Shown here piece by piece: positions 1-35,480 of a DNA stretch of 42,684 bases. The number at the start of each line of letters is the position of its first letter. Position 1 is the first letter of the stretch. Origin of the DNA: a virus (taxonomy: Duplodnaviria > Heunggongvirae > Uroviricota > Caudoviricetes); the IMG/VR virus record IMGVR_UViG_2529292907_000016; one strand, written 5' to 3'. The notes under the pieces were generated by a model, which saw only the letters and a list, made by a program, of their open reading frames with translations, had not been told where the DNA came from and did no database searches. Position numbers and translations under genes: made by a program.

Positions 1-933
1 TCATTCACTCTCTTTCAAACCAGTTTTAACTGTTTGTGGTTTTGGGTAAGGCTGGACTTTGAATAGCTTTGTGTTAAGGCGTTTTCTGGCTCTCTTGTCC
101 AGAAACCGGATGTAACGAAACTGACGGAATTTATGAACACTGGCTCTGTCGATATTAGCCCGCAGATGTTCACCTCGCTGTCCTCCTCGTTTGATTGCAT
201 TCTTGCAAATCTCGTGATACCACTCGCCATCAAGTTCATAGAATGTTGTTTCATGACTGCCTACATAATCAAAATTGCTTGCCTGGTACACGACACCAAG
301 ACAGCCACAACGCTCATCTGCAAACGACTGAACCCACTGCACCTGCGGATAAAGTTGTCTGATTAGTTTGAGCGCGTAACTGATTGCCCTTGATTCGGAG
401 TTTCTCGGCATACAGTCATGCAGCCATAACCGGTTAAGCTCCATATATTCGCGGTTCTGCGTGCCAGTTACGACGCGTGCACCATTGTTTGGATTAAGGG
501 CATAACCCCATTGCATTACGCCAACCAGCTCCCGTTCTGAAAATATGCCCAGATGAAGGTAGGAATTATTTACGAAACGATGGCTGTAATGTTTATTGAC
601 GACGACCAGCCGGGCCAGCCAGCAACTTATTGTCTCAACCCGTAACTCACGGGAGCCATAACCGACGATATTGTCGTTATAGTGAATAAGTTCAGGCGTG
701 CTGATGATACGGGATGTAACTTGCTTTCTGTTCCCCACGACAGGATTTCCTTGTGTATGTGGGGTGCTCTGTGGCGCTCTGAGATGTGATTTGATTGAGG
801 GTTTTACAGCGCGGACATTTAACTTCCAGATAACTGAAGCTGGCTCGTGCCAGTAGCTTGTTACAATGTCGGCACCGTATGTTTCGATACATGGCCGCAT
901 AACCTCCTGCTTTGTTGTTGATATCTTTATCAC
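1..933 (-). CDS. mom: Mom-like DNA modification protein; true start probably near the com stop (~700), not the GTG at 933
   Basis: Last ORF before the prophage right end, overlapping a Com-like zinc-finger ORF in another frame as in Mu com/mom; no canonical start codon seen in frame near com stop. Confidence 0.55.
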
Positions 934-2226: not shown

Positions 2227-4281
2227 TTACGCGTTATTCACTTCCACCACGATACTGTCAATCAGTACCGGGTAAGTCGCATTTTTAGTGATATCGGTCA
2301 CGCGCAACTTGTCTGCCGTAAACGTGCCGACCGGAGACTGCGACAGCATGAATGGTGTCCCGTCCTTACCATCAATGACCGGCGTCACCTCAATACTGTT
2401 GTTACCGGCAAAACGGAAGCCCAGCGTATGCCATTCGTTATTAAATGCGCCGAATGACCCCAGCTTCGTGTTCTGCGCCGTGTTTCCTTTGTGATACATC
2501 ACGTTAAGGTCTGTGGCATCGCTCTGTACGTAGAACGATGCCAGCAGGTTATGACCGGCATTTCCTTCCAGAGTAACCCCTTGCGGCAGGGCAGAAACCG
2601 GCCAGTACAGCGCCAGTGCGTACTGATTAGCCGTAAGCGCGCCATCGAGTTTAAAACGACAACTGACAAGACCACCTTTACCCAGCAGGTCCGCACCATT
2701 ACCAGCATCATGCTCAAGGTACCAGGGGGCTCTTCCTGTTTCCTTGGTCAGTTTCATTGCCTTACCCCCGCTGGCTCCGGCATCATCCACGATTTGAGCC
2801 TTGCCACCTCCGGCAGCCCAACCCTGTGGTGTCAACCGTCCTTCAGACTCAGATGCCCGGTAAGCAAATAGCGTACTCATCGTCGTGGTGTCTGCGGGTG
2901 GCGTGGACGGTTTTGATGGTGTATCAGGTGACGGCTTCTCATCCGGTGGTGTCACGGTCTGCCCGCGCATCAGTTCAGCCGTGCGCCCTGCATGGAGCAT
3001 AATAGCTGAGGCCAGACGGTCTGAAATGACGCCCCTGCGTGCCCATGAGCTGAAATGGCTGTCACGCTGTGTCGAAACAAAACTGCCCTGGGTTCGGGAT
3101 GCTGCACCGTAATACCCGACAGCCACAATATCCGGGTCTTCCGCCGGAGCATTCGTTGGCGTGCTCTGTCCATTCTCATCCGTCAGGAACGGTACAAAGA
3201 AAATTTTCTGTGCTTCCTTGCCTTTGTAGCCACCGTATACTGCCTCATATTTATCGGTGCCAGCGTTTTTCCAGTAATACGTGGTATCTCCGCAAATCCA
3301 CGGCACCGTGGTGGCATTTCCACTCACGCACTGCGCAGCAAGCGGAGCCAGGTCAGTTCTGAACTGCTGAACCATGGCCGTGAATAAACTATTATGCTGC
3401 TGGCTTCCTGAGGCAAGGTCTGCCTCTCCCTGCATCCAGACCACAGCCAGAAGTTTGTTTTTCGGGTTTTTCGCCAGCGCGACTTTGGTGCGGCTTACCA
3501 GGTCCTGATACAGAGGTTTACCGGCCCCCCAGCGTGAAGAATCAGCGGAAGCACCGCTGGCCTCACTGAATGAGCCGTCGGCTCCAGTGGTGAATGCTGA
3601 CCCGCCACGACAACAGGGCACCAGAAGTATCCCGGCATTCTGTGGGATATAGGGAAGCAGTTTTTTGGCAATATGCAACCCCTGACCGACAGTCCCGTAC
3701 TGGCCTTTTGCCAGATCAGCTTTCGGGTGGTTTATCCCGCTCATATCCTGAACATCATGCAGGCAGTGGTCTGCCGGAATGATGTCGTTGTATGTACACG
3801 ACGTACCGTTGGGCGTTACCGTACTGCGGCGTGCCAGTTGCTTAATGCGTGGGTCCGGGCGGTCAAACGAATCCGGTAACGGCAGCCCCTCGCCGTAGGC
3901 CATGCCATTTGACTGACCCGCGAGAATGACAACAAAGTAATATTCCGGCTCTGAACTGCTGCCATTCGTGCTACCGGAAGGCCCGGCGTTATCCGGTGCA
4001 TTCCAGTCGGAGGGCGTGAGCGTTCCGGCCACGTCAGATGTGATTGGAATGATGCCAGTCACGCCTGAACTGGTGATTTCTGCACTGGGATTACCGGATA
4101 CCGGCATTACCCATAATGGCTCTTTCGTGCTGAAGCGGATCACGCAGTCTGCGAAGGTGATCCCCCCTTTATTACCCGAAGGGCGGAAAGGGCTTTCAAT
4201 AAATGCCACCGTGCCACCGGCAACCTTGACTGAAAACTCTCCGGGCATGGCGGAGAGCATTTTCCACTTGGAGTCTGACAT
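2227..4281 (-). CDS. SASA-domain (sialate O-acetylesterase, NanS/NanS-p-like) esterase with Pro/Thr-rich linker and C-terminal beta-rich domain
   Basis: Motifs ILAGQSNGMAYGEG and WMQGEAD typical of SASA family; no signal peptide; linker TPPDEKPSPDTPSKPSTPP. Confidence 0.6.
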   Translation of the reverse strand: MSDSKWKMLSAMPGEFSVKVAGGTVAFIESPFRPSGNKGGITFADCVIRFSTKEPLWVMPVSGNPSAEITSSGVTGIIPITSDVAGTLTPSDWNAPDNAGPSGSTNGSSSEPEYYFVVILAGQSNGMAYGEGLPLPDSFDRPDPRIKQLARRSTVTPNGTSCTYNDIIPADHCLHDVQDMSGINHPKADLAKGQYGTVGQGLHIAKKLLPYIPQNAGILLVPCCRGGSAFTTGADGSFSEASGASADSSRWGAGKPLYQDLVSRTKVALAKNPKNKLLAVVWMQGEADLASGSQQHNSLFTAMVQQFRTDLAPLAAQCVSGNATTVPWICGDTTYYWKNAGTDKYEAVYGGYKGKEAQKIFFVPFLTDENGQSTPTNAPAEDPDIVAVGYYGAASRTQGSFVSTQRDSHFSSWARRGVISDRLASAIMLHAGRTAELMRGQTVTPPDEKPSPDTPSKPSTPPADTTTMSTLFAYRASESEGRLTPQGWAAGGGKAQIVDDAGASGGKAMKLTKETGRAPWYLEHDAGNGADLLGKGGLVSCRFKLDGALTANQYALALYWPVSALPQGVTLEGNAGHNLLASFYVQSDATDLNVMYHKGNTAQNTKLGSFGAFNNEWHTLGFRFAGNNSIEVTPVIDGKDGTPFMLSQSPVGTFTADKLRVTDITKNATYPVLIDSIVVEVNNA

Positions 4282-4355
4282 CGTCTTTTCTGCCTGTTTC
4301 TGAATTAAACAGAGTCAGAATAGCGACCGCTGAAAAATATGTGTTTTGCGGAAAT

Positions 4356-4387
4356 TCAAAAAAGCGTCACGGTACTTTTGGTGACGG
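4356..4387 (-). terminator. Intrinsic terminator at the 3' end of gin
   Basis: Minus-strand RNA: stem CGUCAC/GUGACG with 10-nt loop followed by CUUUUUUG; stem overlaps the last gin codons. Confidence 0.55.
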
Positions 4388-7424: not shown

Positions 7425-8497
7425 GTGATTTCTCCTACCGTCAGCAGCTCACTGTCTCCCGCCTGAACTGACGTCAGCGGACTGCGCACTTCAAAATCCT
7501 CCAGATTTTTCACCCCTGCCACCGCCCGCCAGAAAGACGACGGCAGAACCAGACCGCCGGGCCGGGATTCGTTATACAACAGGTCGGTCAGCGCCTGTTT
7601 TACGGCCGCCTGATTCTCCGGTGTTTTCGGGATGATCCTGATGCTGAAGGGCACCGGCTTATTGGTCAGTTTAAACACGGTCACCGTCGGCCCCAGAGGC
7701 TGTCCGACAGGCTGGCCGGTCGCCGGATCATCATGACTGCGGATATAATCCGCCACCCGCTGAACATCACCGTCACCGGGGAAAATATCCGGGTTATTAT
7801 CCTGAACAAACGTTACCCCCACGCTGCCCGCCTGCGGCCATTCCGGGCGGCACCATGCCCGCGTCACGCCCGGCACTTCACGCGCCCAGCGTTCAAAATC
7901 ATACTGCGTGCCGCCGGACGGTGGATTCTGCACCCGGAAAACCAGACGGGAAAGCAGCTCCGGCACGGTTTCCACATCCGCACCACCGGTGATCCCCGTT
8001 CCGGTCACCGTGGCCGTCTGGTTGATCCCCGCCTGCGGTGTGATAAATGTCAGTTTTGTCCCTGCCGGGGCATTCCCCGCACGACCGGCACTTTCGGCTT
8101 CCACACTGACATTCAGCGTACCGGCCTTACCGGTCAGGGAGGTGGTGATACGGTAAACCACGCCATCACTTCGCTGGAGAAGCACACCTTCCTTGATCCC
8201 CGCATCCGTGGTCAGCATCAGCTGAACCGGCCCGTCCCCCCGAGAGGCAGGCTTACGCATGACGCCCCAGAATGCACAGTGTTTCAGCAGTTCGGCTTCA
8301 TCGGCTTCGGTCGGGATGATCTGACGCGCAATCCAGGCCAGATGCTCATGCTCCTGAGCAGATAACCCTGCCTGAGCGTAAGCAATGGCATTCAGGGTGG
8401 TTTCATTCACACCCGGCTGCGAGCCGGGCAGGCGCTGGCTGATATCCTGCTGTGTCTGCGTGATTAACTGTGCCAGCGGTAAAGGCTGATAAGGCAT
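7415..8497 (-). CDS. Baseplate J-like protein (Mu gp47-like)
   Basis: 360-aa ORF in the baseplate cluster; synteny. Confidence 0.7.
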   Translation of the reverse strand: MPYQPLPLAQLITQTQQDISQRLPGSQPGVNETTLNAIAYAQAGLSAQEHEHLAWIARQIIPTEADEAELLKHCAFWGVMRKPASRGDGPVQLMLTTDAGIKEGVLLQRSDGVVYRITTSLTGKAGTLNVSVEAESAGRAGNAPAGTKLTFITPQAGINQTATVTGTGITGGADVETVPELLSRLVFRVQNPPSGGTQYDFERWAREVPGVTRAWCRPEWPQAGSVGVTFVQDNNPDIFPGDGDVQRVADYIRSHDDPATGQPVGQPLGPTVTVFKLTNKPVPFSIRIIPKTPENQAAVKQALTDLLYNESRPGGLVLPSSFWRAVAGVKNLEDFEVRSPLTSVQAGDSELLTVGEITWL

Positions 8498-8934
8498 TAC
8501 TCCCCCTTAAGATCAGCATAAAAAATCATGGGCCTCACTGAACCATCAGGCAGGGTTATGCGCACCGAAAGCGCCAGCCGCGCGTGTCCCACACGTTCTG
8601 CATGACAGACCACGGATGACGCCACGCCATCCTGACTGAGCCAGCCCAGCGCCTCATCCGCGTAAGCACGGGCACGGCTTATCACCGAGGCCAGCGTTTT
8701 TTCCCGGCTGAGAAGCCACAGACGGGAGCCAATGGGGCGCGGGCGAAAACTGTCTCCCCACCATCCCCGGCGGTCGCGCGTACCGTCAGGGATTTCATCC
8801 GATGCCAGCGCCCGGCGGTCAGTAAACAGCGAAATCAGAACGGCCGTCAGCAGACTGTCATCCGTCAGCAGGTCGGCACCGTTCAGTTGCAGCGAACCGC
8901 ATCCCTGATCCCACACAATTGCAATATCAGCCAT
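8497..8934 (-). CDS. Baseplate protein (Mu gp46/W-like)
   Basis: 145-aa ORF after the spike gene; native ATG overlaps the reconstructed stop of the upstream gene (ATGGCTGA). Confidence 0.65.
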   Translation of the reverse strand: MADIAIVWDQGCGSLQLNGADLLTDDSLLTAVLISLFTDRRALASDEIPDGTRDRRGWWGDSFRPRPIGSRLWLLSREKTLASVISRARAYADEALGWLSQDGVASSVVCHAERVGHARLALSVRITLPDGSVRPMIFYADLKGE

Positions 8935-8952
8935 TCTCCGGCACTCCTGTCT

Positions 8953-8960
8953 TACTGCCT
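8953..8960. repeat. 8-bp target site duplication TACTGCCT (IS66 element, lower side)
   Basis: Identical 8-mer directly flanks both ends of the element. Confidence 0.65.
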
Positions 8961-21923: not shown

Positions 21924-23047
21924 TATTGCATTTCCTCTTTCATTTTCAGGAACTCGGCTTCGGTTTTACCCAGCAGATGGGCGGCGGCGATATCTTCAGC
22001 CGACAGCGCAGCGGTGGCGGTCTTTTTATCCGGCACGGTTACGGTGTCGGTCTGAAGAGTGGTCAGAGCCGCAACCGGCTGGCGGGCGTCAAGCTGTGCA
22101 GAAAGTGCCGCAACACCAAGCTGTTGTCCGAGTCCTTCCATGTATCCGCGTTCGCTTTTGAAAATGCGTCCTTCGGACTCGGCCTTATCCAGCAACTGCT
22201 CCAGCGTGGTGCTGCCGTGTTGTGCCGACAACGCGACATATTCGGTACGCAGGGCGTTATACGTCTCAACGGGCACGTATTTCGTCAGATCAATAGTGCC
22301 GCCAGTTGGTGTGCCTTTTGCGGTTTCCAGCTCTGCCGACAGGCTGGCAACCTGCGTTTTCAGGGTGTCGTGCGCATCCGCACGGGTTTTGATCCCGGTA
22401 AGGGCAGACAGCGCCGCCGTGCCCAGTTCCGGTGTAAATTCGTCACCGTCGGCCACGGTCAGACCGAGCGCCGTCAGCAACTGGCGTAATTGCTCATTCA
22501 TGGAGGTGTCCTTTAAAGGAGGGTTTAAGGCGTTATAAAGGTCATCCGCCGACAGTGCGGCGACAGGATTCATGCCAGTCAGACCGGGGTCACCGGTAAT
22601 AGCCAGCATCCGAAGCTCAACAGGTTCACCGGTGATTTCGTCATAACCAATCACCGGGGAAAACCAGGGAAATTCGTTATTGCGCAGGTGTTCAATGGCC
22701 GGAGGGTTCCAGTCCGGACGCACTTCAAAACCCCGCTCTTCACTGAAGCGGAAGTTTTCCGGTGAGGCCATGACAAAACCGGCAGCCGGTGCCGGATGCC
22801 CCTTAATCAGGGTCTGGTGGTTGTAGTCAATTTTTACCGGCTGATTGAGCGCCACAACCCGGGATACCATGCGCTCAACGGCCGCATGGTTAATCAGCCA
22901 GCCTTCCGCCGGTTTTTCCGGGCGACCGTCACGGGCCTTTACCCGACCGGCTGGCATGATCTGACACCAGTCACCGTCCCCGTCTGCGGACAGGCTGATG
23001 GCATTCAGAATGGCATAAGCAAGTTTGGGCGTGTTTTTCGTCTTCAT
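21923..23047 (-). CDS. Head maturation protease/scaffold (Mu I-like)
   Basis: 374-aa ORF with Ala-rich coiled C-terminal half, upstream of major head gene. Confidence 0.65.
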   Translation of the reverse strand: MKTKNTPKLAYAILNAISLSADGDGDWCQIMPAGRVKARDGRPEKPAEGWLINHAAVERMVSRVVALNQPVKIDYNHQTLIKGHPAPAAGFVMASPENFRFSEERGFEVRPDWNPPAIEHLRNNEFPWFSPVIGYDEITGEPVELRMLAITGDPGLTGMNPVAALSADDLYNALNPPLKDTSMNEQLRQLLTALGLTVADGDEFTPELGTAALSALTGIKTRADAHDTLKTQVASLSAELETAKGTPTGGTIDLTKYVPVETYNALRTEYVALSAQHGSTTLEQLLDKAESEGRIFKSERGYMEGLGQQLGVAALSAQLDARQPVAALTTLQTDTVTVPDKKTATAALSAEDIAAAHLLGKTEAEFLKMKEEMQ

Positions 23048-23224
23048 TCCGGCAGCATAAGCCGGTGTTTTTCGGGGCCGGTTTTGCGGGACTTCAGAAA
23101 GTGCTGACAGGGGAAAAATGAGAAAGGCGCTTCACGCAGATTTTAAAGCCCGTTAAATACAGGTTAGAAAATCACGACACGCGCCTGAAGAGGGTAAGGT
23201 AATGCGTTTGTATACCTTAAACCA
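23048..23224. promoter_or_regulatory. G-I intergenic region: candidate late promoter and possible strong-gyrase-site equivalent
   Basis: Only sizeable intergenic gap in the head cluster; in Mu the PI promoter and the strong gyrase site lie between G and I. Confidence 0.3.
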
Positions 23225-23698: not shown

Positions 23699-23819
23699 AT
23701 TGCCTCCGCATAAAGGATGAATATAAAATAAACAGGCGGTCAGTGTACGCTTAACTGGTAAAGTCGGTGCCTGCCTCCGGGTGGATCATGTATGCGGGTT
23801 CGACCCCCGCCACTGACCG

Positions 23820-30415: not shown

Positions 30416-30710
30416 TCGTGGCCGCCTTGCTGATTTGTGAAATGAGTTGCAGGGTGCTTTGCTGGTTTGCCAGCACCAGACGGGCTTCGTCCCGTTCACG
30501 CACAAGCACATGATTATTGTCCTCAAGGCGCTGCGTCTTCTGGTGCATTCCCCATACCACGGCAGCCAGCACGCTCATCACCCCCAGCGCCGCCATACAG
30601 CCTCCGGCAATCAGGGCCGGTAAGGGATTGTTCACCGCAGACACAGCACACCCCGCAGCAGCACAACGGCACACAGCAGCGCAATCATGAGCGGTCGCCA
30701 GAAGCGGTTC
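30246..30710 (-). CDS. Rz-like i-spanin (start uncertain; ORF as tracked begins inside lys)
   Basis: TM segment followed by coiled coil; overlapping Rz1 frame. Confidence 0.55.
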   Translation of the reverse strand, partial: EPLLATAHDCAAVCRCAAAGCAVSAVNNPLPALIAGGCMAALGVMSVLAAVVWGMHQKTQRLEDNNHVLVRERDEARLVLANQQSTLQLISQISKAATNEKQQNMQHSEEQQSIVRRSLATVPAAAVPVPDDVADRVRRAVCEIRPCAAGADPR

Positions 30711-31209
30711 AGACTTTCGGCAAATCGTAACGACATAACCATTCATCCGCCGAACGGCGGGCCTCAAGACCGGGGAGTTTTACCCCCTTTGAATAAATCC
30801 AGCGGATATACTGCTTACAGGACGCGGGCATCTGCCCGGCATTGATAAGGCGCAGGAGCGTGGAGTTGCGAAAGTTCGTTTCACCGGCCCAGAAAATCCA
30901 GGAGGCCAGCGCCACCGTCTGACCACGGGTAAGCGGCACCTGAACATGACGATCGATAGCCGCAAAGGCCCATTTCATGTCCTTTTCCAGCAGCTCCAGA
31001 CACTCTTCATCAGTTTTTGTCATCCCCGGTTTCACATCCGGGCCGGTATGGCCGTAACAGATGGTGGGGGTGCCGGTGGGATCAATGTACGTGGTGTTTT
31101 CTTTCCCTTCCCAGTAGCCGGTGTAGTGCGTGGCAATGGTGAACGTCCCGGCTCCGGCCAGAACAAGGGCAATCAGCTTTTTACGCAGGGGTGCGGGGAG
31201 TTTTGGCAT
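30709..31209 (-). CDS. lys: SAR endolysin (T4-lysozyme-like)
   Basis: N-terminal hydrophobic SAR-like segment then EG...D...T lysozyme motif region. Confidence 0.75.
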   Translation of the reverse strand: MPKLPAPLRKKLIALVLAGAGTFTIATHYTGYWEGKENTTYIDPTGTPTICYGHTGPDVKPGMTKTDEECLELLEKDMKWAFAAIDRHVQVPLTRGQTVALASWIFWAGETNFRNSTLLRLINAGQMPASCKQYIRWIYSKGVKLPGLEARRSADEWLCRYDLPKV

Positions 31210-31280
31210 TGTTACGCTGTCTCATGGTGTTCTCTGAGTCAGCGTAACCGTGAGGAAAAGGGGGCAGGATTTGCGGAATA
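31210..31280 (-). promoter_or_regulatory. Candidate late promoter upstream of lys
   Basis: Intergenic gap between Mor/C-family activator and lys, as for Mu Plys. Confidence 0.3.
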
Positions 31281-31703
31281 TCAGAAAAGCCGGGGCTGCG
31301 TGCGCTCCTGATGCAGGCGACGCTGGTTGCGGATAACGGAGTAAATCTGCGTCTCTGACATCTGGTAGTGGCGGCGCAGGGTTTCAATTTTTTCGCCCTG
31401 GCTCCAGCGGGAAAAAATTTCATTATTGCGCAGTTCGGTGAAAAGGGATTCACCGACCGGGAGATAATAACCACGCCCGCCCATGTACCCGGCCTGTGCG
31501 GCTGCAACCTTACGGGCAAGCATTCCCGCCTGAGCAGGTTCAATCCCCTGACGGTGCAGTTCAGCACTGATCACATCAACCAGGTCCCGCAGCGTGCCGG
31601 GCCAGTTCTTTTTCAGCTCATCATCAGGAATATCATCCAGACGGTCAATCAGCGCGTGCAGCTGTTCGCTGTCACCAAACATGCTCATCTGTGTTTCAGC
31701 CAT
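31281..31703 (-). CDS. Mor/C-family transcription activator (only one copy present)
   Basis: 140 aa with GGRGYYLPVG motif and C-terminal HTH; lies between gemA and lys. Confidence 0.7.
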   Translation of the reverse strand: MAETQMSMFGDSEQLHALIDRLDDIPDDELKKNWPGTLRDLVDVISAELHRQGIEPAQAGMLARKVAAAQAGYMGGRGYYLPVGESLFTELRNNEIFSRWSQGEKIETLRRHYQMSETQIYSVIRNQRRLHQERTQPRLF

Positions 31704-31773
31704 ACCCGCCTCCGGTCATCATTACACAGGGCAAGTTTAAAATAAAAATCCCGCGCTGTGGCGGGATTTGGGG

Positions 31774-32286
31774 TTAACGGGGGAATGATTTTTCATACAG
31801 CCTGCAAACACGCTCATAACTCATCACTGCACGTTCCGACATATCCAGGGCTGCCAGCATTTTGCGGCGGTGCCAGCGTTTGAGACGCTCCAGCACATCA
31901 GAGGCCAGCGCGGGTTGTTGCTCCAGCCACTGCCAGTTAGCCACACCTTCGCCGTCGTTCTGCGCGGCCGTCTGCGATTTCACCCAGCGGTTAAGGGCCG
32001 TTTCCCCGCCATCAGAGATAAATCCCTGCCGGTGCATCACTTTCCAGATGGCGCGAATTTTGGCGGTCACCGTACCCGGTTTTAAGGCCCGGTTAACCGG
32101 CTTCTGACGCACTTTAAAACCGCGTTTTTTGAAAACATCCAGCACGCGGGATAACTCACCGGGTGACATATCACGGCAACTGGATTTGCCGGTGGCTGCC
32201 AGCAGCGCGGATGTATAGGTATCATGGTCAAGCTGTAGATCGCGTTTTGCGACATGTATTAAGGTAATCAGGGAAGCGCGATTCAT
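31774..32286 (-). CDS. gemA: GemA-like early regulatory protein
   Basis: 170-aa ORF MNRASLITLIHVAKRDL... upstream of Mor/C gene. Confidence 0.6.
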   Translation of the reverse strand: MNRASLITLIHVAKRDLQLDHDTYTSALLAATGKSSCRDMSPGELSRVLDVFKKRGFKVRQKPVNRALKPGTVTAKIRAIWKVMHRQGFISDGGETALNRWVKSQTAAQNDGEGVANWQWLEQQPALASDVLERLKRWHRRKMLAALDMSERAVMSYERVCRLYEKSFPR

Positions 32287-32299
32287 TATCGTGGCTCCA

Positions 32300-32330
32300 T
32301 AAAAAATGGGCGGTGTTACCGCACCGCCAT
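32300..32330 (-). terminator. Intrinsic terminator on - strand just upstream of gemA
   Basis: Minus RNA: stem GGCGGUG/CACCGCC followed by CAUUUUUUAU. Confidence 0.55.
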
Positions 32331-32356
32331 GTCAATTAACATAAAAGGAAAAATCT

Positions 32357-32596
32357 ATGTCAGATATAAAAAATGCACTTGATGTTGCCGCATTCACAAT
32401 GGCTGGAAATCTTATGGTAACCCTGTTCGATAAGGGGCTGATTTCCCGTGAGGAGGCAATACATATTATCAATCTCGCTCAAAAAAACTCTACCCCGGAA
32501 AATGCAGAAGATATCCAGGATGGCTCATATATTAATACCGACTGGCATTTCGACAATCTCCGGGCCTGTATGGGGATTACCGCTGAAAAAGATTAA
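32357..32596 (+). CDS. Hypothetical protein (79 aa), antisense to the early operon, in a low-GC island
   Basis: ORF with RBS-like GGAAAAA upstream; converges on and overlaps 32577..32879 by ~20 bp. Confidence 0.4.
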   Translation: MSDIKNALDVAAFTMAGNLMVTLFDKGLISREEAIHIINLAQKNSTPENAEDIQDGSYINTDWHFDNLRACMGITAEKD

Positions 32597-32879
32597 AAAT
32601 TTTTGCATAATGTTCAGATGTAAGAATTGCTGAACCATCAACACCGAGCCTGCGGCGAACGTATTCCTCGCGGGCTATTTTATTATCCAGAGATACAGCA
32701 TCCTTAATCAGGTTAATCTCCCGCTCCATTATCAAAAGGGCTTCTCTGGCTGCAAGATTTTCTTTTATCGCATATTCGATAATGTCCCGCATACGTTCAA
32801 GCATGCCGATTTTAGCCAGTTCTTCGTCGATAGATTTAGGCGCAAATTTGATTTCTTTTTCCATATTATTCATCCTCAC
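32577..32879 (-). CDS. Hypothetical protein (likely start at MEKEIKF, ~32864)
   Basis: ATG immediately after the stop of the upstream small ORF; low-GC. Confidence 0.45.
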   Translation of the reverse strand: MRMNNMEKEIKFAPKSIDEELAKIGMLERMRDIIEYAIKENLAAREALLIMEREINLIKDAVSLDNKIAREEYVRRRLGVDGSAILTSEHYAKIFNLFQR

Positions 32880-33009
32880 AATTTATACATGCAGTGTCGT
32901 CGCCCATATCGCAGTGGTTACATTTTATCTCACCACAATGTGGGCACTCTTTCAGATACTCCGGGTCCTCATTTCCACAGGTGGGACATTCAACAATTTG
33001 CTCATCCAT
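32866..33009 (-). CDS. Cys-rich zinc-ribbon protein (~47 aa), not in ORF track
   Basis: Manual translation MDEQIVECPTCGNEDPEYLKECPHCGEIKCNHCDMGDDTACINCEDE; start overlaps upstream stop (ATGGATGA). Confidence 0.4.
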   Translation of the reverse strand: MDEQIVECPTCGNEDPEYLKECPHCGEIKCNHCDMGDDTACINCEDE

Positions 33010-33334
33010 TATGTATCCCCTGTAATTCCGGCAAGGCCGAAAGATGGCACCAGTGCGTCACCTGTCCGTCCTCATCTTCAAGGCAGGCTCCGGTTTCTTC
33101 ATCAATAAAAAAGCCTTCATACCCCATATGGCCGATGCGCAGTTCCTGTTGGTCACCATACTGAACAATCAGCACGACAGCCTCCATATCAGGCGGAAAT
33201 GCGTCATCCAGTGAATGCCAGGGATAACCGCGCAAATCCCCGAAATAAACGCCGGTCAGCGTTCCGCCACAGAGCGGCATTCCGGCGGCACACACAAGAG
33301 GTTCATCTGATTCAACAAATAAGGTCGTTATCAT
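33002..33334 (-). CDS. Hypothetical protein (110 aa)
   Basis: ORF in early operon, translationally coupled neighbours. Confidence 0.45.
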   Translation of the reverse strand: MITTLFVESDEPLVCAAGMPLCGGTLTGVYFGDLRGYPWHSLDDAFPPDMEAVVLIVQYGDQQELRIGHMGYEGFFIDEETGACLEDEDGQVTHWCHLSALPELQGIHNG

Positions 33335-33882
33335 GGCGTTAACTCCCGTAATACAGCGTCCTCGGCAGTCCGGCGACGGTAATAAACTGCGTGAGCAGAA
33401 TGTTCAGATATTCCAAACTTTTCGCCAATTTCCCGGAATGACAGACGGCGTGGGTAATCGGAATCACGCAGCGCACGTATAAGACGTACATCATCATCAG
33501 ATATGCGCGTGCCGGGGCGTAACTCTCCGCACTTTGTTAATCCAGCACCAATCATTCCTGCCCGACATCTGACAGAATCTTTATTACGTCCGAGATATTC
33601 TCCCATTTGCTGGCAGGTCATTGTTCTGGCATTTTTTCGAATAAACTTATCTTCATCAGGTGTAAATCTTGGGTGTTTATATTTCAGTAACTCCGGGTAT
33701 GAACTGCGCAATACACCAGTCCGGTTATATACAGCCCAGACAGTTCTTTTTATTCTGGCAGCAATATCCTTAACCGGGGTGGATGAATAAAGCGCAATCA
33801 GCAGCGCATCTTCTTCAGGTGTCCACGGACGGACATGAGCGGGGGCGCGACCTTTTAGTCCCATGGGTTGTAATTTCATCAT
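33331..33882 (-). CDS. Hypothetical protein with three HTH/Myb-like repeats (possible DNA-binding)
   Basis: Repeated W/F-TP-E/D-ED...I...motifs (WTPEEDALLIALY, FTPDEDKFIRK). Confidence 0.45.
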   Translation of the reverse strand: MMKLQPMGLKGRAPAHVRPWTPEEDALLIALYSSTPVKDIAARIKRTVWAVYNRTGVLRSSYPELLKYKHPRFTPDEDKFIRKNARTMTCQQMGEYLGRNKDSVRCRAGMIGAGLTKCGELRPGTRISDDDVRLIRALRDSDYPRRLSFREIGEKFGISEHSAHAVYYRRRTAEDAVLRELTP

Positions 33883-34937: not shown

Positions 34938-35480
34938 TTATTCCTCCGTCAGCGCCACATATTCAGAATGTTTAATTTCCTGGCATTCTTCAGGAATACC
35001 CCCTTTTATTTCCCTGCCATAAGCGCCTACTTTAAACACCACGCACAGGGCATCACGGGAGAGCGACGGGGTCCACCAGGAGTCCGTGTTAAACATGGAG
35101 GGGATTCTCATTACCCCCAGCTTTTCACAGAGCCAGACAAGGAAATCAGGACGCTTTCTTAACTCACGTTCAGCGGTTTCAATCATTGCGGCAATCGCCG
35201 GACCTTCAGGGCATGACTCATCAGGTCTGGCAATAAAGCACGGTCCGTCCCCGATAAAAGCCACATCATCGCGCTTACGCCAGCCCGCAGGCAGAGAACC
35301 AGAAAAATAAAACTCACTGATTACGTCCATGGCGAACGGCTTTAAGCGCAATCCGGCAGCGCCTGTATTTTTCAGTAATGCCCGAAGAATACTGTTGCGT
35401 AGCGGTAAAACATCCCGCTGATATTCGGTTAAATATTTATTTGTGTACACTATGTCTAATTTGAAATAAAAATATGCCAT
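34938..35480 (-). CDS. Hypothetical protein (180 aa)
   Basis: ORF preceded by ~100-bp AT-rich gap after gam. Confidence 0.45.
   Translation of the reverse strand: MAYFYFKLDIVYTNKYLTEYQRDVLPLRNSILRALLKNTGAAGLRLKPFAMDVISEFYFSGSLPAGWRKRDDVAFIGDGPCFIARPDESCPEGPAIAAMIETAERELRKRPDFLVWLCEKLGVMRIPSMFNTDSWWTPSLSRDALCVVFKVGAYGREIKGGIPEECQEIKHSEYVALTEE

Follow-up and report, generated by a model that had tools for sequence, protein, structure and literature searches.

How does a Mu-like prophage pass from early to late transcription with a single gene of the Mor/C activator family, and does the hairpin in front of its gemA gene cut that activator off from the early transcript? Both points go back to an earlier note on this DNA, which described one Mor/C-family gene between gemA and lys, where Mu has separate Mor and C activators, and a strong intrinsic terminator immediately 5' of gemA that would set gemA and the activator apart.

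The prophage and its gene content

The window (the whole 42.7-kb stretch of DNA that was analysed, to which all positions refer) contains an entire Mu-like prophage of E. coli, running along the minus strand from the repressor gene (40995..41513, plus strand) to mom (933..1, minus strand). In the region of interest, gemA (170 aa; 31774..32286, minus strand) was identified by Pfam GemA (E=1.8e-28) and PHROG 286 (E=1.7e-53), and lys, encoding an endolysin of 166 aa (30709..31209, minus strand), by Pfam Phage_lysozyme (E=1e-36). Divergent from gemA is the small orf79 (32357..32596, plus strand; PHROG 32893, E=1.3e-45), which lies in an AT-rich block of the GC profile (around 32300-33000, 39-43% GC) and carries the RefSeq annotation WP_001280088.1 in the prophage of E. 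coli HH35 (NZ_CP136993.2), which is 99.8% identical, has an intact A gene and is annotated with the same gemA/activator/lys gene content. An early SANT/Myb-like protein of 183 aa is encoded at 33882..33331 (minus strand) and was assigned to PHROG 323, 'transcriptional regulator, D5-like' (E=2e-52), with weak Pfam Myb/HTH matches. An in-frame amber codon (W482*, 39133..39131) interrupts the transposase gene A, and the cascade may therefore not operate in this copy. ARAGORN found no tRNA in the window, although RefSeq places a 'tRNA-OTHER' between genes F and G of the near-identical prophage. With a permissive threshold, Rfam returned sub-threshold chance matches only (Trp_leader and one snoRNA family).

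The single activator gene and its class

The activator gene (31281..31703, minus strand; 140 aa) matches the Pfam Mor family (PF08765, E=6.7e-31) with 106.9 bits against a cutoff of 24.9, and positions 2-107 of the 107 in the profile are aligned. The Mor/C family is marked by a length of about 100-150 aa and by an invariant Gly-Gly in GGxxxY(I/L)P, ahead of the C-terminal DNA-binding region; in the activator these residues are G75 and G76, within YMGGRGYYLPVG, compared to FLGGRQFYIPCG in Mu C and HLGGGQVYIPRG in Mor. The six-frame translation of all 42.7 kb was searched by phmmer and hmmsearch with the window activator itself, with Mor and C of Mu and with a profile built from 3 sequences. This turned up no further Mor/C-like ORF, the next best match having E > 0.04. 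The earlier note, which had proposed a search for a second such gene elsewhere, had therefore counted correctly.

The protein has the same length as Mu C, aligns with it end to end and is closer to it (103 bits, 41% identity) than to Mor (47 bits, 31% identity), and against the PDB it matched MuC (9l0x, E=2e-28) better than Mor (1rr7, E=2.5e-11). It falls in PHROG 532, 'late transcriptional activator', and its gene is located directly upstream of lys, with a Plys-type promoter in between. Clamp-binding motifs have been described for MuC at two positions (PMC12867686), and in the alignment with MuC the activator has QMSMF (residues 5-9) opposite QHDLF and QPRLF (136-140) opposite QPDLF, so that both positions are occupied, each with one position off the family consensus; clamp binding is thus putative. 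Sequence and position together mark it as a C-type, late activator, which makes mor the missing gene. In the three-tier arrangement of Mu, mor overlaps the end of gemA, whereas here gemA is followed by a 70-nt spacer that contains a second hairpin, T2.

The single-activator layout among relatives

In a set of relative loci taken from IMG/VR, one C-like gene was present in 53 of the 53 non-Mu loci sampled, whereas Mor and C were both present in all 25 Mu-proper loci. The lone activators are 40-100% identical to that of the window, score higher to C than to Mor in every one of the 53 loci, and lie directly upstream of lys in all but five, in which lys was either off a short contig or too diverged for detection. 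Within the phage collection, Mu, D108, SfMu and Yersinia Mu-type phages matched the activator query at two places per record, and nearly all other listed phages, including BcepMu, phiE255, Vibrio phages (among them martha 12B12) and HS6, gave one match each, like the window. The window activator protein itself was found in about 1,000 or more E. coli and Shigella contigs, and the same layout is also present in E. coli copies with an intact A gene. Two scans of a genome-contig collection with one genome per species returned no relative and two Pasteurellaceae loci only, respectively.

The single-activator layout had already been reported for inducible Mu-like phages: Mannheimia 3927AP2 and phiMhaMu2 and Haemophilus SuMu have one mor-like gene with lys immediately downstream, and a separate C is missing (PMC4553209). 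These phages resemble the window in that one Mor/C-family gene adjoins lys with gemA upstream, but their authors named the gene mor and regarded C as lost, in contrast to the closer similarity to C of the window-type genes; the terminator and promoter anatomy given here for the window was not described there. A single C-type activator adjoining lys is, therefore, the usual layout of Mu relatives, and what the earlier note had pointed out is the standard state.

Hairpins before and after gemA

The hairpin before gemA (T1; 32299..32328, minus strand) comprises GGCGGTG-CGGTAA-CACCGCC (32328..32309) followed by CATTTTTTAT (32308..32299). It has a 7-bp stem with six G-C pairs, a 6-nt loop and six T after the stem, with a folding energy of -12.4 kcal/mol, and CATTTTTTAT abuts the gemA Shine-Dalgarno GGAG. 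T1 and T2 are the two top-ranked terminator-like matches of the minus strand between 20 and 40 kb, both of them intergenic. In a simple scan, however, terminator-like sites between 28 and 35 kb numbered nine against 6.8 ± 2.6 expected, and the T1 region folded only modestly better than its shuffles (z = -1.7). The T-run begins 2 nt past the stem, with a tail T of 1.62 and d = -27.5 compared to -3.6 for Mu t9.2, a d'Aubenton-Carafa-type score which with modern energies is negative even for t9.2 and is of use for ranking only. Hence a hairpin with six T does stand before gemA, but to call it a strong terminator was an overstatement.

Homologous hairpins were found in Mu and in eight other lineages, with 97% of the stem cells paired and with a fixed distance to the gemA Shine-Dalgarno. 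The stem shows one compensatory change (U-A to C-G), its conservation being mostly at the level of sequence, and the tail behind it varies from CCCTTTCC to T8. Seven lineages have a run of 5-8 T directly behind the G+C-rich stem; kept in this way, the T-run may terminate more than the tail score suggests. The hairpin usually adjoins the start of a reverse-strand gene, and in the window, too, its upstream neighbour is a reverse-strand gene. Where the activator is 99-100% identical, relatives occur that are devoid of T1 and have gemA coupled to an upstream same-strand ORF. Conservation, and not window statistics alone, shows that T1 is real, and it is best described as a conserved leader element common to Mu and not as a clear transcription stop. 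T1 is not placed where a transcription unit would end: only 22 nt separate its stem from the gemA ATG, and these are occupied by the T-run and the Shine-Dalgarno; as there is no room for a promoter between them, every gemA transcript must cross T1. The promoter scan called no sigma-70-like promoter upstream of T1 on the minus strand.

The hairpin between gemA and the activator gene (T2; 31739..31769, minus strand), which the earlier note did not mention, starts 4 nt after the gemA stop and consists of AAATCCCGC-CACAGC-GCGGGATTT (31769..31746) followed by TTATTTT, i.e. a 9-bp stem, a 6-nt loop and the tail UUUUUAUUUU. It folds at -12.9 kcal/mol with z = -3.2, and its d of -5.3 is to be compared with -3.6 for Mu t9.2, which it also resembles in stem energy (-11.7 kcal/mol for t9.2), in having the same tail score and in its position, behind the last early gene and just upstream of the -10 that belongs to the next regulatory gene. 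The hairpin is kept after gemA in lineages whose activators are 44-100% identical to that of the window. Fold, tail score and conservation thus predict termination at T2, which would be a better terminator than T1, and we propose it as the end of the early operon and the counterpart of t9.2. Since T2 lies between gemA and the activator, gemA would stay in the early operon and only the activator would be set apart. This position, the 22-nt gap, the Mu homologue of T1 and the relatives that do without it all speak against the view that T1 isolates both genes.

Candidate promoters of the activator and late genes

The putative promoter of the activator gene (P_act; 31734..31762, minus strand) would consist of a -35-like GCCACA (31762..31757), a 17-nt spacer and a -10-like TAAACT (31739..31734), with the -35-like hexamer inside the T2 loop, the T-run inside the spacer and an alternative -10, TATTTT, at 31744..31739. 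Directly upstream of the activator gene, every lineage has a T-run, then 1-4 nt and then a -10-like hexamer (TATACT, TATAGT, TATAAT, TATATT, TATGCT or TAAACT), and this arrangement persists in L039, whose hairpin has lost its 5' arm, and in L053 and L082, which have no hairpin; this makes activity of P_act plausible. The TAAACT of the window is the weakest -10 variant of the family (4/6), its -35-like hexamer scores 3/6, and P_act fell below the threshold of the promoter scan. T2 was also considered as a late-type, activator-dependent promoter and was rejected, as the exact pattern, the PWM and the -10-anchored identity all failed, bar a nominal match to Plys.

Mor/C-family activators act, from an upstream site, on sigma-70 promoters with a -10 and no -35, and two sites in the window are candidate targets, each with a conserved box 20 nt from a -10. 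The Plys-type promoter (31241..31286, minus strand) reads TTCTGA-N4-CCGCAAATCC (box 31276..31267), 20 nt, -10 TACGCT (31246..31241), and was located by alignment with Mu Plys and relatives, in which the 71-nt spacer between activator and lys aligns with Mu Plys at the box, the -10 and the downstream CTGxCxTCAGAGAA. The PI-type promoter (23054..23099, minus strand; pattern and PWM) reads TTCTGA-N4-CCGCAAAACC, 20 nt, TATGCT, with 6 nt between its -10 and the start codon of gene I (ATG at 23047). The pattern CGCAAANCC-N19-21-TANNNT matched at these two sites only, with 0.12 matches expected by chance. A third, weak look-alike, TTTTGAATTTCCGCAAAAC ... TATTCT (4315..4361, minus strand), which follows the invertase gene and precedes a 684-aa SASA/DUF6645 ORF and mom, was the best match outside the training sites to a late-promoter PWM that, being built on six sites, is overfitted and meaningful for ranking alone. 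The PWM search of late promoters recognised no PP-type promoter.

A hairpin in the lys leader (31211..31248, minus strand) pairs the -10 region of Plys with the sequence just before the lys ATG, at -20.4 kcal/mol and z = -3.68, and none of 200 shuffles matched it. Five relatives (L001, L041, L042, L006 and L007) have a hairpin of this design built from other sequences. No terminator was detected between the activator gene and lys.

Comparison with Mu

The window shares with the Mu cascade (Pe, t9.2/Pm, C, Plys/PI/PP/Pmom) the gene order gemA, activator, lys, the homologous Plys and PI promoters with a -10 and no -35, and an intrinsic terminator fused to the next promoter region (T2 in the window, t9.2/Pm in Mu). 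Also shared are the gemA leader hairpin and the upstream gp13-gp14-reverse-ORF cassette, in which the Mu reverse ORF, unannotated, is distantly related to orf79; the one sign of this homology is a weak PHROG link (E = 5.9e-4), BLASTP between the two being not significant. Unlike Mu, the window has no mor, Pm or gp18-gp20, which makes the cascade one of two tiers instead of three, and it also differs in the absence of a terminator between the activator gene and lys, in the lack of a recognisable PP-type promoter and in the run of six T behind T1, absent from the Mu hairpin.

The Mor site of Pm can be placed at AF083977 9173-9188 by its published anchors, namely -57G and -54A (PMC4390567) together with a dyad at -51..-36 (PMC4287176). 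There it overlaps the t9.2 hairpin, and fusion of a terminator to the next promoter is therefore a known design of Mu. The -10 of Pm lies 14 nt past the T-run, with the centre of the Mor dyad at -43.5, whereas in the window the -10 candidate lies at most 4 nt past the T-run and no full activator site is present. A Pm-type promoter has a dyad-symmetric site for its activator around -43.5 and a -10, but lacks a -35; P_act, in comparison, has a -10 without a good -35, but a half-box only, the wrong spacing and a low PWM score.

The 'semi-early promoter' and gem operon of the Mu record (AF083977) involve the same hairpin family at the same distance from the gemA Shine-Dalgarno, but no matching sigma-70 promoter is recognisable in the window, and the hexamers of this promoter could not be identified by eye.

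A probable two-step cascade and its alternatives

Gene content, the hairpins and their conservation, and the promoter homology with Mu are established, and the reading that we consider probable on this basis is a two-step Mu-type cascade, early and then late, with one C-type activator. Early transcription would start at a repressor-controlled promoter and proceed on the minus strand through T1, which may attenuate it partially, into gemA, and most of it would end at T2, a canonical intrinsic terminator directly after gemA. Leak-through at T2 and a weak P_act would provide low-level expression of the activator, which would then switch on Mu-type late promoters with a -10 and no -35, namely Plys, PI and perhaps one near mom. 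On read-through transcripts the lys leader hairpin would keep lys untranslated; on those started at Plys it could not form. The two-step model still lacks some element of control, because a lysogen would be endangered by a constitutive promoter before its late activator gene.

The role of T1 allows other readings. An efficient T1 could end the early operon before gemA, leaving gemA and the activator as a separate unit with its own promoter: T1 is the first strong terminator-like site of the minus strand downstream of the early genes, with its G-C-rich 7-bp stem and six T, a 'semi-early promoter' is annotated over the homologous hairpin in the Mu GenBank record, and the gem operon of Mu is reported to be expressed constitutively (cited in the reference list of PMC3820752). 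This is nevertheless unlikely, given that no promoter fits behind T1 or was called upstream of it, that its tail is offset and scores far below t9.2, that close relatives dispense with it, and that T2 would in any case preclude a single gemA-activator unit. A somewhat better, though still doubtful, case can be made for T1 being mainly something other than a terminator, either a DNA palindrome or promoter element that serves orf79 and gemA as a divergent pair or a stem-loop with a U-rich leader that stabilises the gemA mRNA and aids its translation. The fixed distance to the Shine-Dalgarno despite a variable tail, the sequence-level conservation of the stem, the usual proximity of a reverse-strand gene start and the promoter placed over the hairpin in the Mu record agree with such a role, but the T-runs of seven lineages fit at least partial termination, and no regulator or promoter can be assigned to T1 from its sequence.

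Other alternatives concern what switches on the activator gene. The activator might bind the 5' arm of T2 and activate its own promoter, T2 leak-through priming a switch that replaces the Mor step. In that arm, CCCCAAATCC is one mismatch from the late-promoter box CCGCAAATCC, and the phage strand carries CAAATCC[C/T]GCC at exactly three places (at Plys, in T2 and inside the tape-measure gene); an exact 13-mer, CCAAATCCCGCCA, is common to T2 and the start of the tape-measure gene (16761..16749), where no -10 follows. Anchored on the -10, P_act and Plys share 13/23 identities, with 27-34 of 2000 shuffles as good (nominal), the -10 with a poor -35 is as in Mor/C-dependent promoters (PMC4287176), and in Mu Pm the activator site likewise overlaps a terminator hairpin. 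However, T2 has the proximal half-box only and misses the distal TTCTGA half, the half-box lies 24 nt from the conserved -10 against a rigid 20 nt in Plys and PI, T2/P_act ranks far below the real late sites (PWM score -13 vs. 39-45), P_act does not resemble PI significantly, no such similarity is seen in other lineages, and the half-box is lost in L039, L053 and L082 though the -10 stays, so that we hold this autoregulation to be possible but doubtful. That a second activator of another family, the SANT/Myb-like protein or another early product, switches on P_act as Mor would is improbable: besides its PHROG and Pfam matches, the SANT/Myb-like gene is present in every window-clade locus with enough upstream sequence and absent from Mu, which has Mor, but it is also absent from L006, L041-L044 and L047-L057, all of them single-activator loci and several with the same T2/P_act sequence, and the protein has no informative match to a solved structure and nothing that ties it to P_act. 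Loss of mor by deletion from a decaying, defective prophage, to which the amber codon in gene A might point, is very improbable and already contradicted by the comparative data, the same layout being found in all 53 non-Mu loci, in the intact-A E. coli copies and in inducible phages (PMC4553209).

Taken as a whole the finding is ordinary, with a few useful details, since neither the single activator nor the gemA hairpin is unusual, and existing knowledge of the mode of action of Mor/C proteins is unchanged. In annotation, 'late (C-type) activator' would suit the lone gene better than 'Mor', and the hairpin after gemA is a better choice for the end of the early operon than the one in front of it. 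A bolder and rather speculative extension of the two-step cascade is that, in single-activator Mu relatives, RNA and DNA architecture replaces the Mor step, with leaky T1 and T2 in series metering early transcription, a T2-embedded promoter boosted by the activator itself via the 5'-arm half-box, and a lys hairpin that blocks lys translation on transcripts not started at Plys. If true, T1, T2, the embedded promoter and the lys hairpin together would form a self-priming timer that needs no second activator. The fusion of T2 with a promoter and the lys hairpin would offer simple explanations of late-gene timing and lysis control without Mor, and the comparison suggests that the three-tier cascade of Mu, the textbook model, is the exception within its own family.

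A single C-type activator between gemA and lys

Strong Pfam matches were obtained for gemA (32286..31774), for a single Mor-domain activator gene (31703..31281) and for lys (31209..30709), as expected from the earlier note, which had placed one Mor/C-family gene between gemA and lys and had proposed looking for a second one elsewhere. When a six-frame translation of the entire window was searched with the activator itself, with Mor and C of Mu and with a small profile, no second Mor/C-like ORF came up, the next best E-value being > 0.04. The activator has 140 aa, the same length as C, and showed 41% identity to Mu C (103 bits) vs. 31% to Mor (47 bits). Its alignment with the MuC chains of known structure spans the full length (E = 2e-28, vs. 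2.5e-11 for Mor), and its gene adjoins lys on the upstream side, which is the position of C. Two clamp-binding motifs of MuC, QHDLF and QPDLF, were recently reported as essential (PMC12867686); QMSMF and QPRLF of the window activator align with them as candidate clamp-binding motifs. Judged by its sequence, the activator is C-type.

The number of activators was also assayed in 73 related IMG/VR loci and in further loci of E. coli, Salmonella and metagenomic origin, each searched for Mor/C, GemA and lysozyme ORFs. Mu-proper loci all carried C plus Mor, with mor overlapping the end of gemA, whereas all the other loci (n = 53) had exactly one Mor/C gene inside 10 kb. These lone activators were 40-100% identical to that of the window, closer by score to C than to Mor in every case, and encoded immediately 5' of lys in all but five loci, in which lys lies beyond the end of a short contig or has diverged too far to be detected. 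In a phage collection, the window activator matched two places per record in Mu, D108, SfMu and Yersinia Mu-type phages, and one in nearly all other phages listed, including BcepMu, phiE255, Vibrio phages and HS6. As relatives share this layout and it has already been described (PMC4553209), the absence of a second activator is real but ordinary, a single activator being the normal state. These data suggest that the missing gene is mor, not C.

The prophage and its near-identical copies

The window holds a complete Mu-like E. coli prophage with its genes on the minus strand, ordered as repressor (40995..41513, +), transposase A, B, gam, small early genes, gemA, the Mor-family gene, lys, head/tail genes, invertase and mom, the latter at the left edge. 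For region 30600-33200, five complete E. coli genomes have prophages with 99.7-99.8% identity, and prophages in > 200 others match this region, wholly or in part, at 80-99%. These genes are also annotated by RefSeq in strain HH35, and the exact activator protein was found on at least 1,000 contigs.

Transposase gene A (40576..38468, −) carries an in-frame amber TAG at 39131..39133, where the HH35 prophage, 99.8% identical, has TGG (W482); it divides the gene into ORFs of 481 and 197 aa. This prophage copy is probably unable to transpose. The A-B spacer contains a hairpin (38432..38461, +) with a 13-bp stem and flanking A- and T-runs (AAATAACCTGAGTC-GCCG-CTCGGGTTATTT) that may terminate transcription in both directions or act as an attenuator inside the early operon. 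A 180-aa ORF without family match (34938..35480, −) has no counterpart in the HH35 prophage, which is otherwise 99.8% identical (498-bp indel); it was seen again in other relatives and so behaves like a cassette of variable presence in the early region.

The hairpin before gemA

The earlier note had described a strong terminator immediately 5' of gemA. A hairpin with a T-run is indeed present there (T1, GGCGGTG-CGGTAA-CACCGCC, 32328..32309, followed by CATTTTTTAT and directly by the gemA Shine-Dalgarno GGAG), but 'strong' goes too far. Its stem energy (−12.4 kcal/mol) was comparable to that of the Mu early terminator t9.2 (−11.7); the tail score, used for ranking only, was poor (d = −27.5 vs. 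−3.6 for t9.2) because the U-run begins 2 nt past the stem. Folding of the region was modestly better than that of shuffles (z = −1.7), and terminator-like sites were not enriched around it (9 found vs. 6.8 ± 2.6 expected).

Conservation nonetheless shows T1 to be a real element. The arrangement GGCGGTG-N6-CACCGCC, pyrimidine-rich stretch, GGAG(G), ACGAT(A/C)ATG precedes gemA in Mu and eight other lineages, with 97% of cells paired across 11 stem variants. As the stem changes amount to one compensatory U-A to C-G and a few G-U, what is conserved is chiefly the sequence. The tail differs between lineages, with CCCTTTCC in Mu, 5-8 T in seven lineages and six T in the window. T1 is accompanied by a cassette shared with Mu, which in the window lies inside an AT-rich block; it comprises homologues of gp13 (Zn-ribbon) and gp14 together with a small gene on the reverse strand (in the window orf79, 32357..32596, PHROG 32893). 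In Mu (AF083977), an unannotated 88-aa reverse-strand ORF (7896..8162, −) lies just 5' of the gemA hairpin and matches PHROG 8747 over its full length (E = 6.6e-60) and PHROG 32893 weakly; the annotated plus-strand Mu_54 (7960..8127), antisense to it, had no PHROG match.

The 22 nt between T1 and the gemA ATG are occupied by the T-run and the Shine-Dalgarno, and therefore every gemA mRNA has to traverse T1. In Mu, Mor is an early product, from a transcript crossing the hairpin upstream of gemA. Relatives with activators 84-100% identical to that of the window have a different cassette without T1, and the ORF 5' of gemA, on the same strand, is then directly coupled to it. Since T1 is conserved in Mu, crossed by every gemA mRNA and absent from some relatives, it probably belongs to the gemA leader, would attenuate transcription no more than partially, and is probably not the end of the early operon. 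The exclusion of gemA from the early transcript by T1 is thus improbable.

A predicted terminator and putative promoter between gemA and the activator gene

A second hairpin, T2 (AAATCCCGC-CACAGC-GCGGGATTT plus TTATTTT, 31769..31739), missed in the earlier note, begins 4 nt past the gemA stop codon. It folds far beyond chance (z = −3.2), with energy and tail score on par with t9.2. A T2-type terminator follows gemA in lineages with activators 44-100% identical to that of the window, and loci with extra genes between gemA and the activator have one copy after gemA and a second, often partial, before the activator (L019, L025, L039, L040, L043-L047 and L056). In another related locus, L015, the loop of T2 is interrupted by an IS element with a 445-aa transposase (about 8490..10000), inserted with duplication of 11 bp of target (GCCACAGCGCG) and putting 1.5 kb between gemA and the activator gene.

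In every lineage the T-run is immediately followed by a −10-like hexamer (TATACT, TATAGT, TATAAT, TATATT or TATGCT; TAAACT in the window), kept even where the hairpin has lost its 5' arm (L039) or is missing (L053, L082). In the hairpin loop, 17 nt 5' of this hexamer, lies a poor match to a −35 (GCCACA or CCGCCA, 3/6). From this pattern we infer a weak activator-gene promoter, P_act, fused to the early terminator. Mu t9.2 is likewise fused to the Mor-dependent middle promoter Pm that follows it: mapped through the published anchors (−57G, −54A and dyad −51..−36; PMC4390567, PMC4287176), the Mor site of Pm (AF083977 9173-9188) falls on the t9.2 hairpin, where it spans the loop and the 5' arm. 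T2 plus P_act, not T1, is the probable early/late boundary.

Late promoters and the lys leader

The activator-lys spacer can be aligned with Mu Plys, and within the window's clade the common elements are TTCTGA-N4-CCGCAAAnCC, exactly 20 nt and then TAnnCT. The pattern CGCAAANCC-N19-21-TANNNT had just two matches, one 5' of lys (31275..31241) and one 5' of gene I (23088..23054), with 0.12 matches expected by chance. A third look-alike lies 3' of the invertase gene (4361..4315). Downstream of it, between the invertase gene and mom, a 684-aa ORF (2227..4281, −) with a SASA (sialate O-acetylesterase-like) domain and DUF6645 may be cargo; Mu has only com and mom there.

In contrast to Mu, no terminator follows the activator gene in the window. 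A strong predicted hairpin in the lys leader (31248..31211, −; −20.4 kcal/mol, z = −3.68) joins the −10 region of Plys to the bases that immediately precede the lys ATG, in the ribosome-binding region, and equivalent hairpins of different sequence were predicted in five related loci (L001, L041, L042, L006 and L007). A transcript started at Plys would be without the 5' arm, so the predicted hairpin could not form. Both arms would be present on read-through transcripts, and pairing between them would occlude the ribosome-binding region of lys. Translation of lys could thus be blocked on read-through transcripts but not on those started at Plys.

At the gene I promoter PI (stretch from −10 to start codon, 23047..23059, −), the −10 (TATGCT) ends 6 nt ahead of the ATG of this protease/scaffold gene, which appears to be the real start because the N-terminus aligns with Mu I. 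This distance is 6-7 nt in three diverged lineages (L041, L042, L048), and the −10 is inside the loop of a small hairpin (CCGGC/GCCGG) whose stem shows covariation from lineage to lineage (GACCG/CGGTC). Transcripts from PI may thus lack a leader. Between F and G, at a place corresponding to 23739..23818 (+) of the window, RefSeq marks a 'tRNA-OTHER' in the HH35 relative; ARAGORN detected no tRNA in the whole window.

Control of the activator and proposed cascade

The activator could bind the T2 5' arm and control its own promoter, as this arm (CCCCAAATCC) is one base off the late-promoter box and the phage strand has exactly three copies of CAAATCC[C/T]GCC. However, T2 offers the proximal half-site only, 24 nt and not 20 from the conserved −10, with a PWM score far under those of real late-promoter sites. 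The −10-anchored identity between P_act and Plys was nominal (13/23, equalled by about 30/2000 shuffles), but not significant against PI, nor in other lineages. Such autoregulation is possible, but unsupported and rather improbable. An exact 13-mer (CCAAATCCCGCCA) shared with the T2 5' arm is present at the tape-measure gene start (16749..16761, −; ~0.001 expected by chance), preceded by ATATTTCCGC, similar to the Plys box, and no −10 follows it. Another candidate regulator is an early 183-aa SANT/Myb-like putative transcription regulator (33882..33331, −; PHROG 323 'transcriptional regulator', E = 2e-52), found in all loci of the window's clade with enough sequence on the upstream side and without counterpart in Mu, but missing also from many other single-activator lineages.

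The most likely mechanism, in which we place somewhat more trust than doubt, is a two-tier cascade with a single C-type activator. The early operon would traverse T1 and gemA and mostly stop at T2; the activator, produced at low level from P_act plus leak-through at T2, would turn on Plys and PI, with a promoter near mom as a further possible target, and premature lys translation would be stopped by the hairpin in the lys leader. The observation in the earlier note is confirmed and its interpretation holds in part, with a C-type gene and the probable boundary at T2 plus P_act instead of T1 as additions, together with the predicted lys leader hairpin. MuC requires a DNA-loaded sliding clamp (PMC12867686). 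If C-type activators shared this need, late transcription would be coupled to replication, which, speculatively, could render a separate Mor step dispensable.
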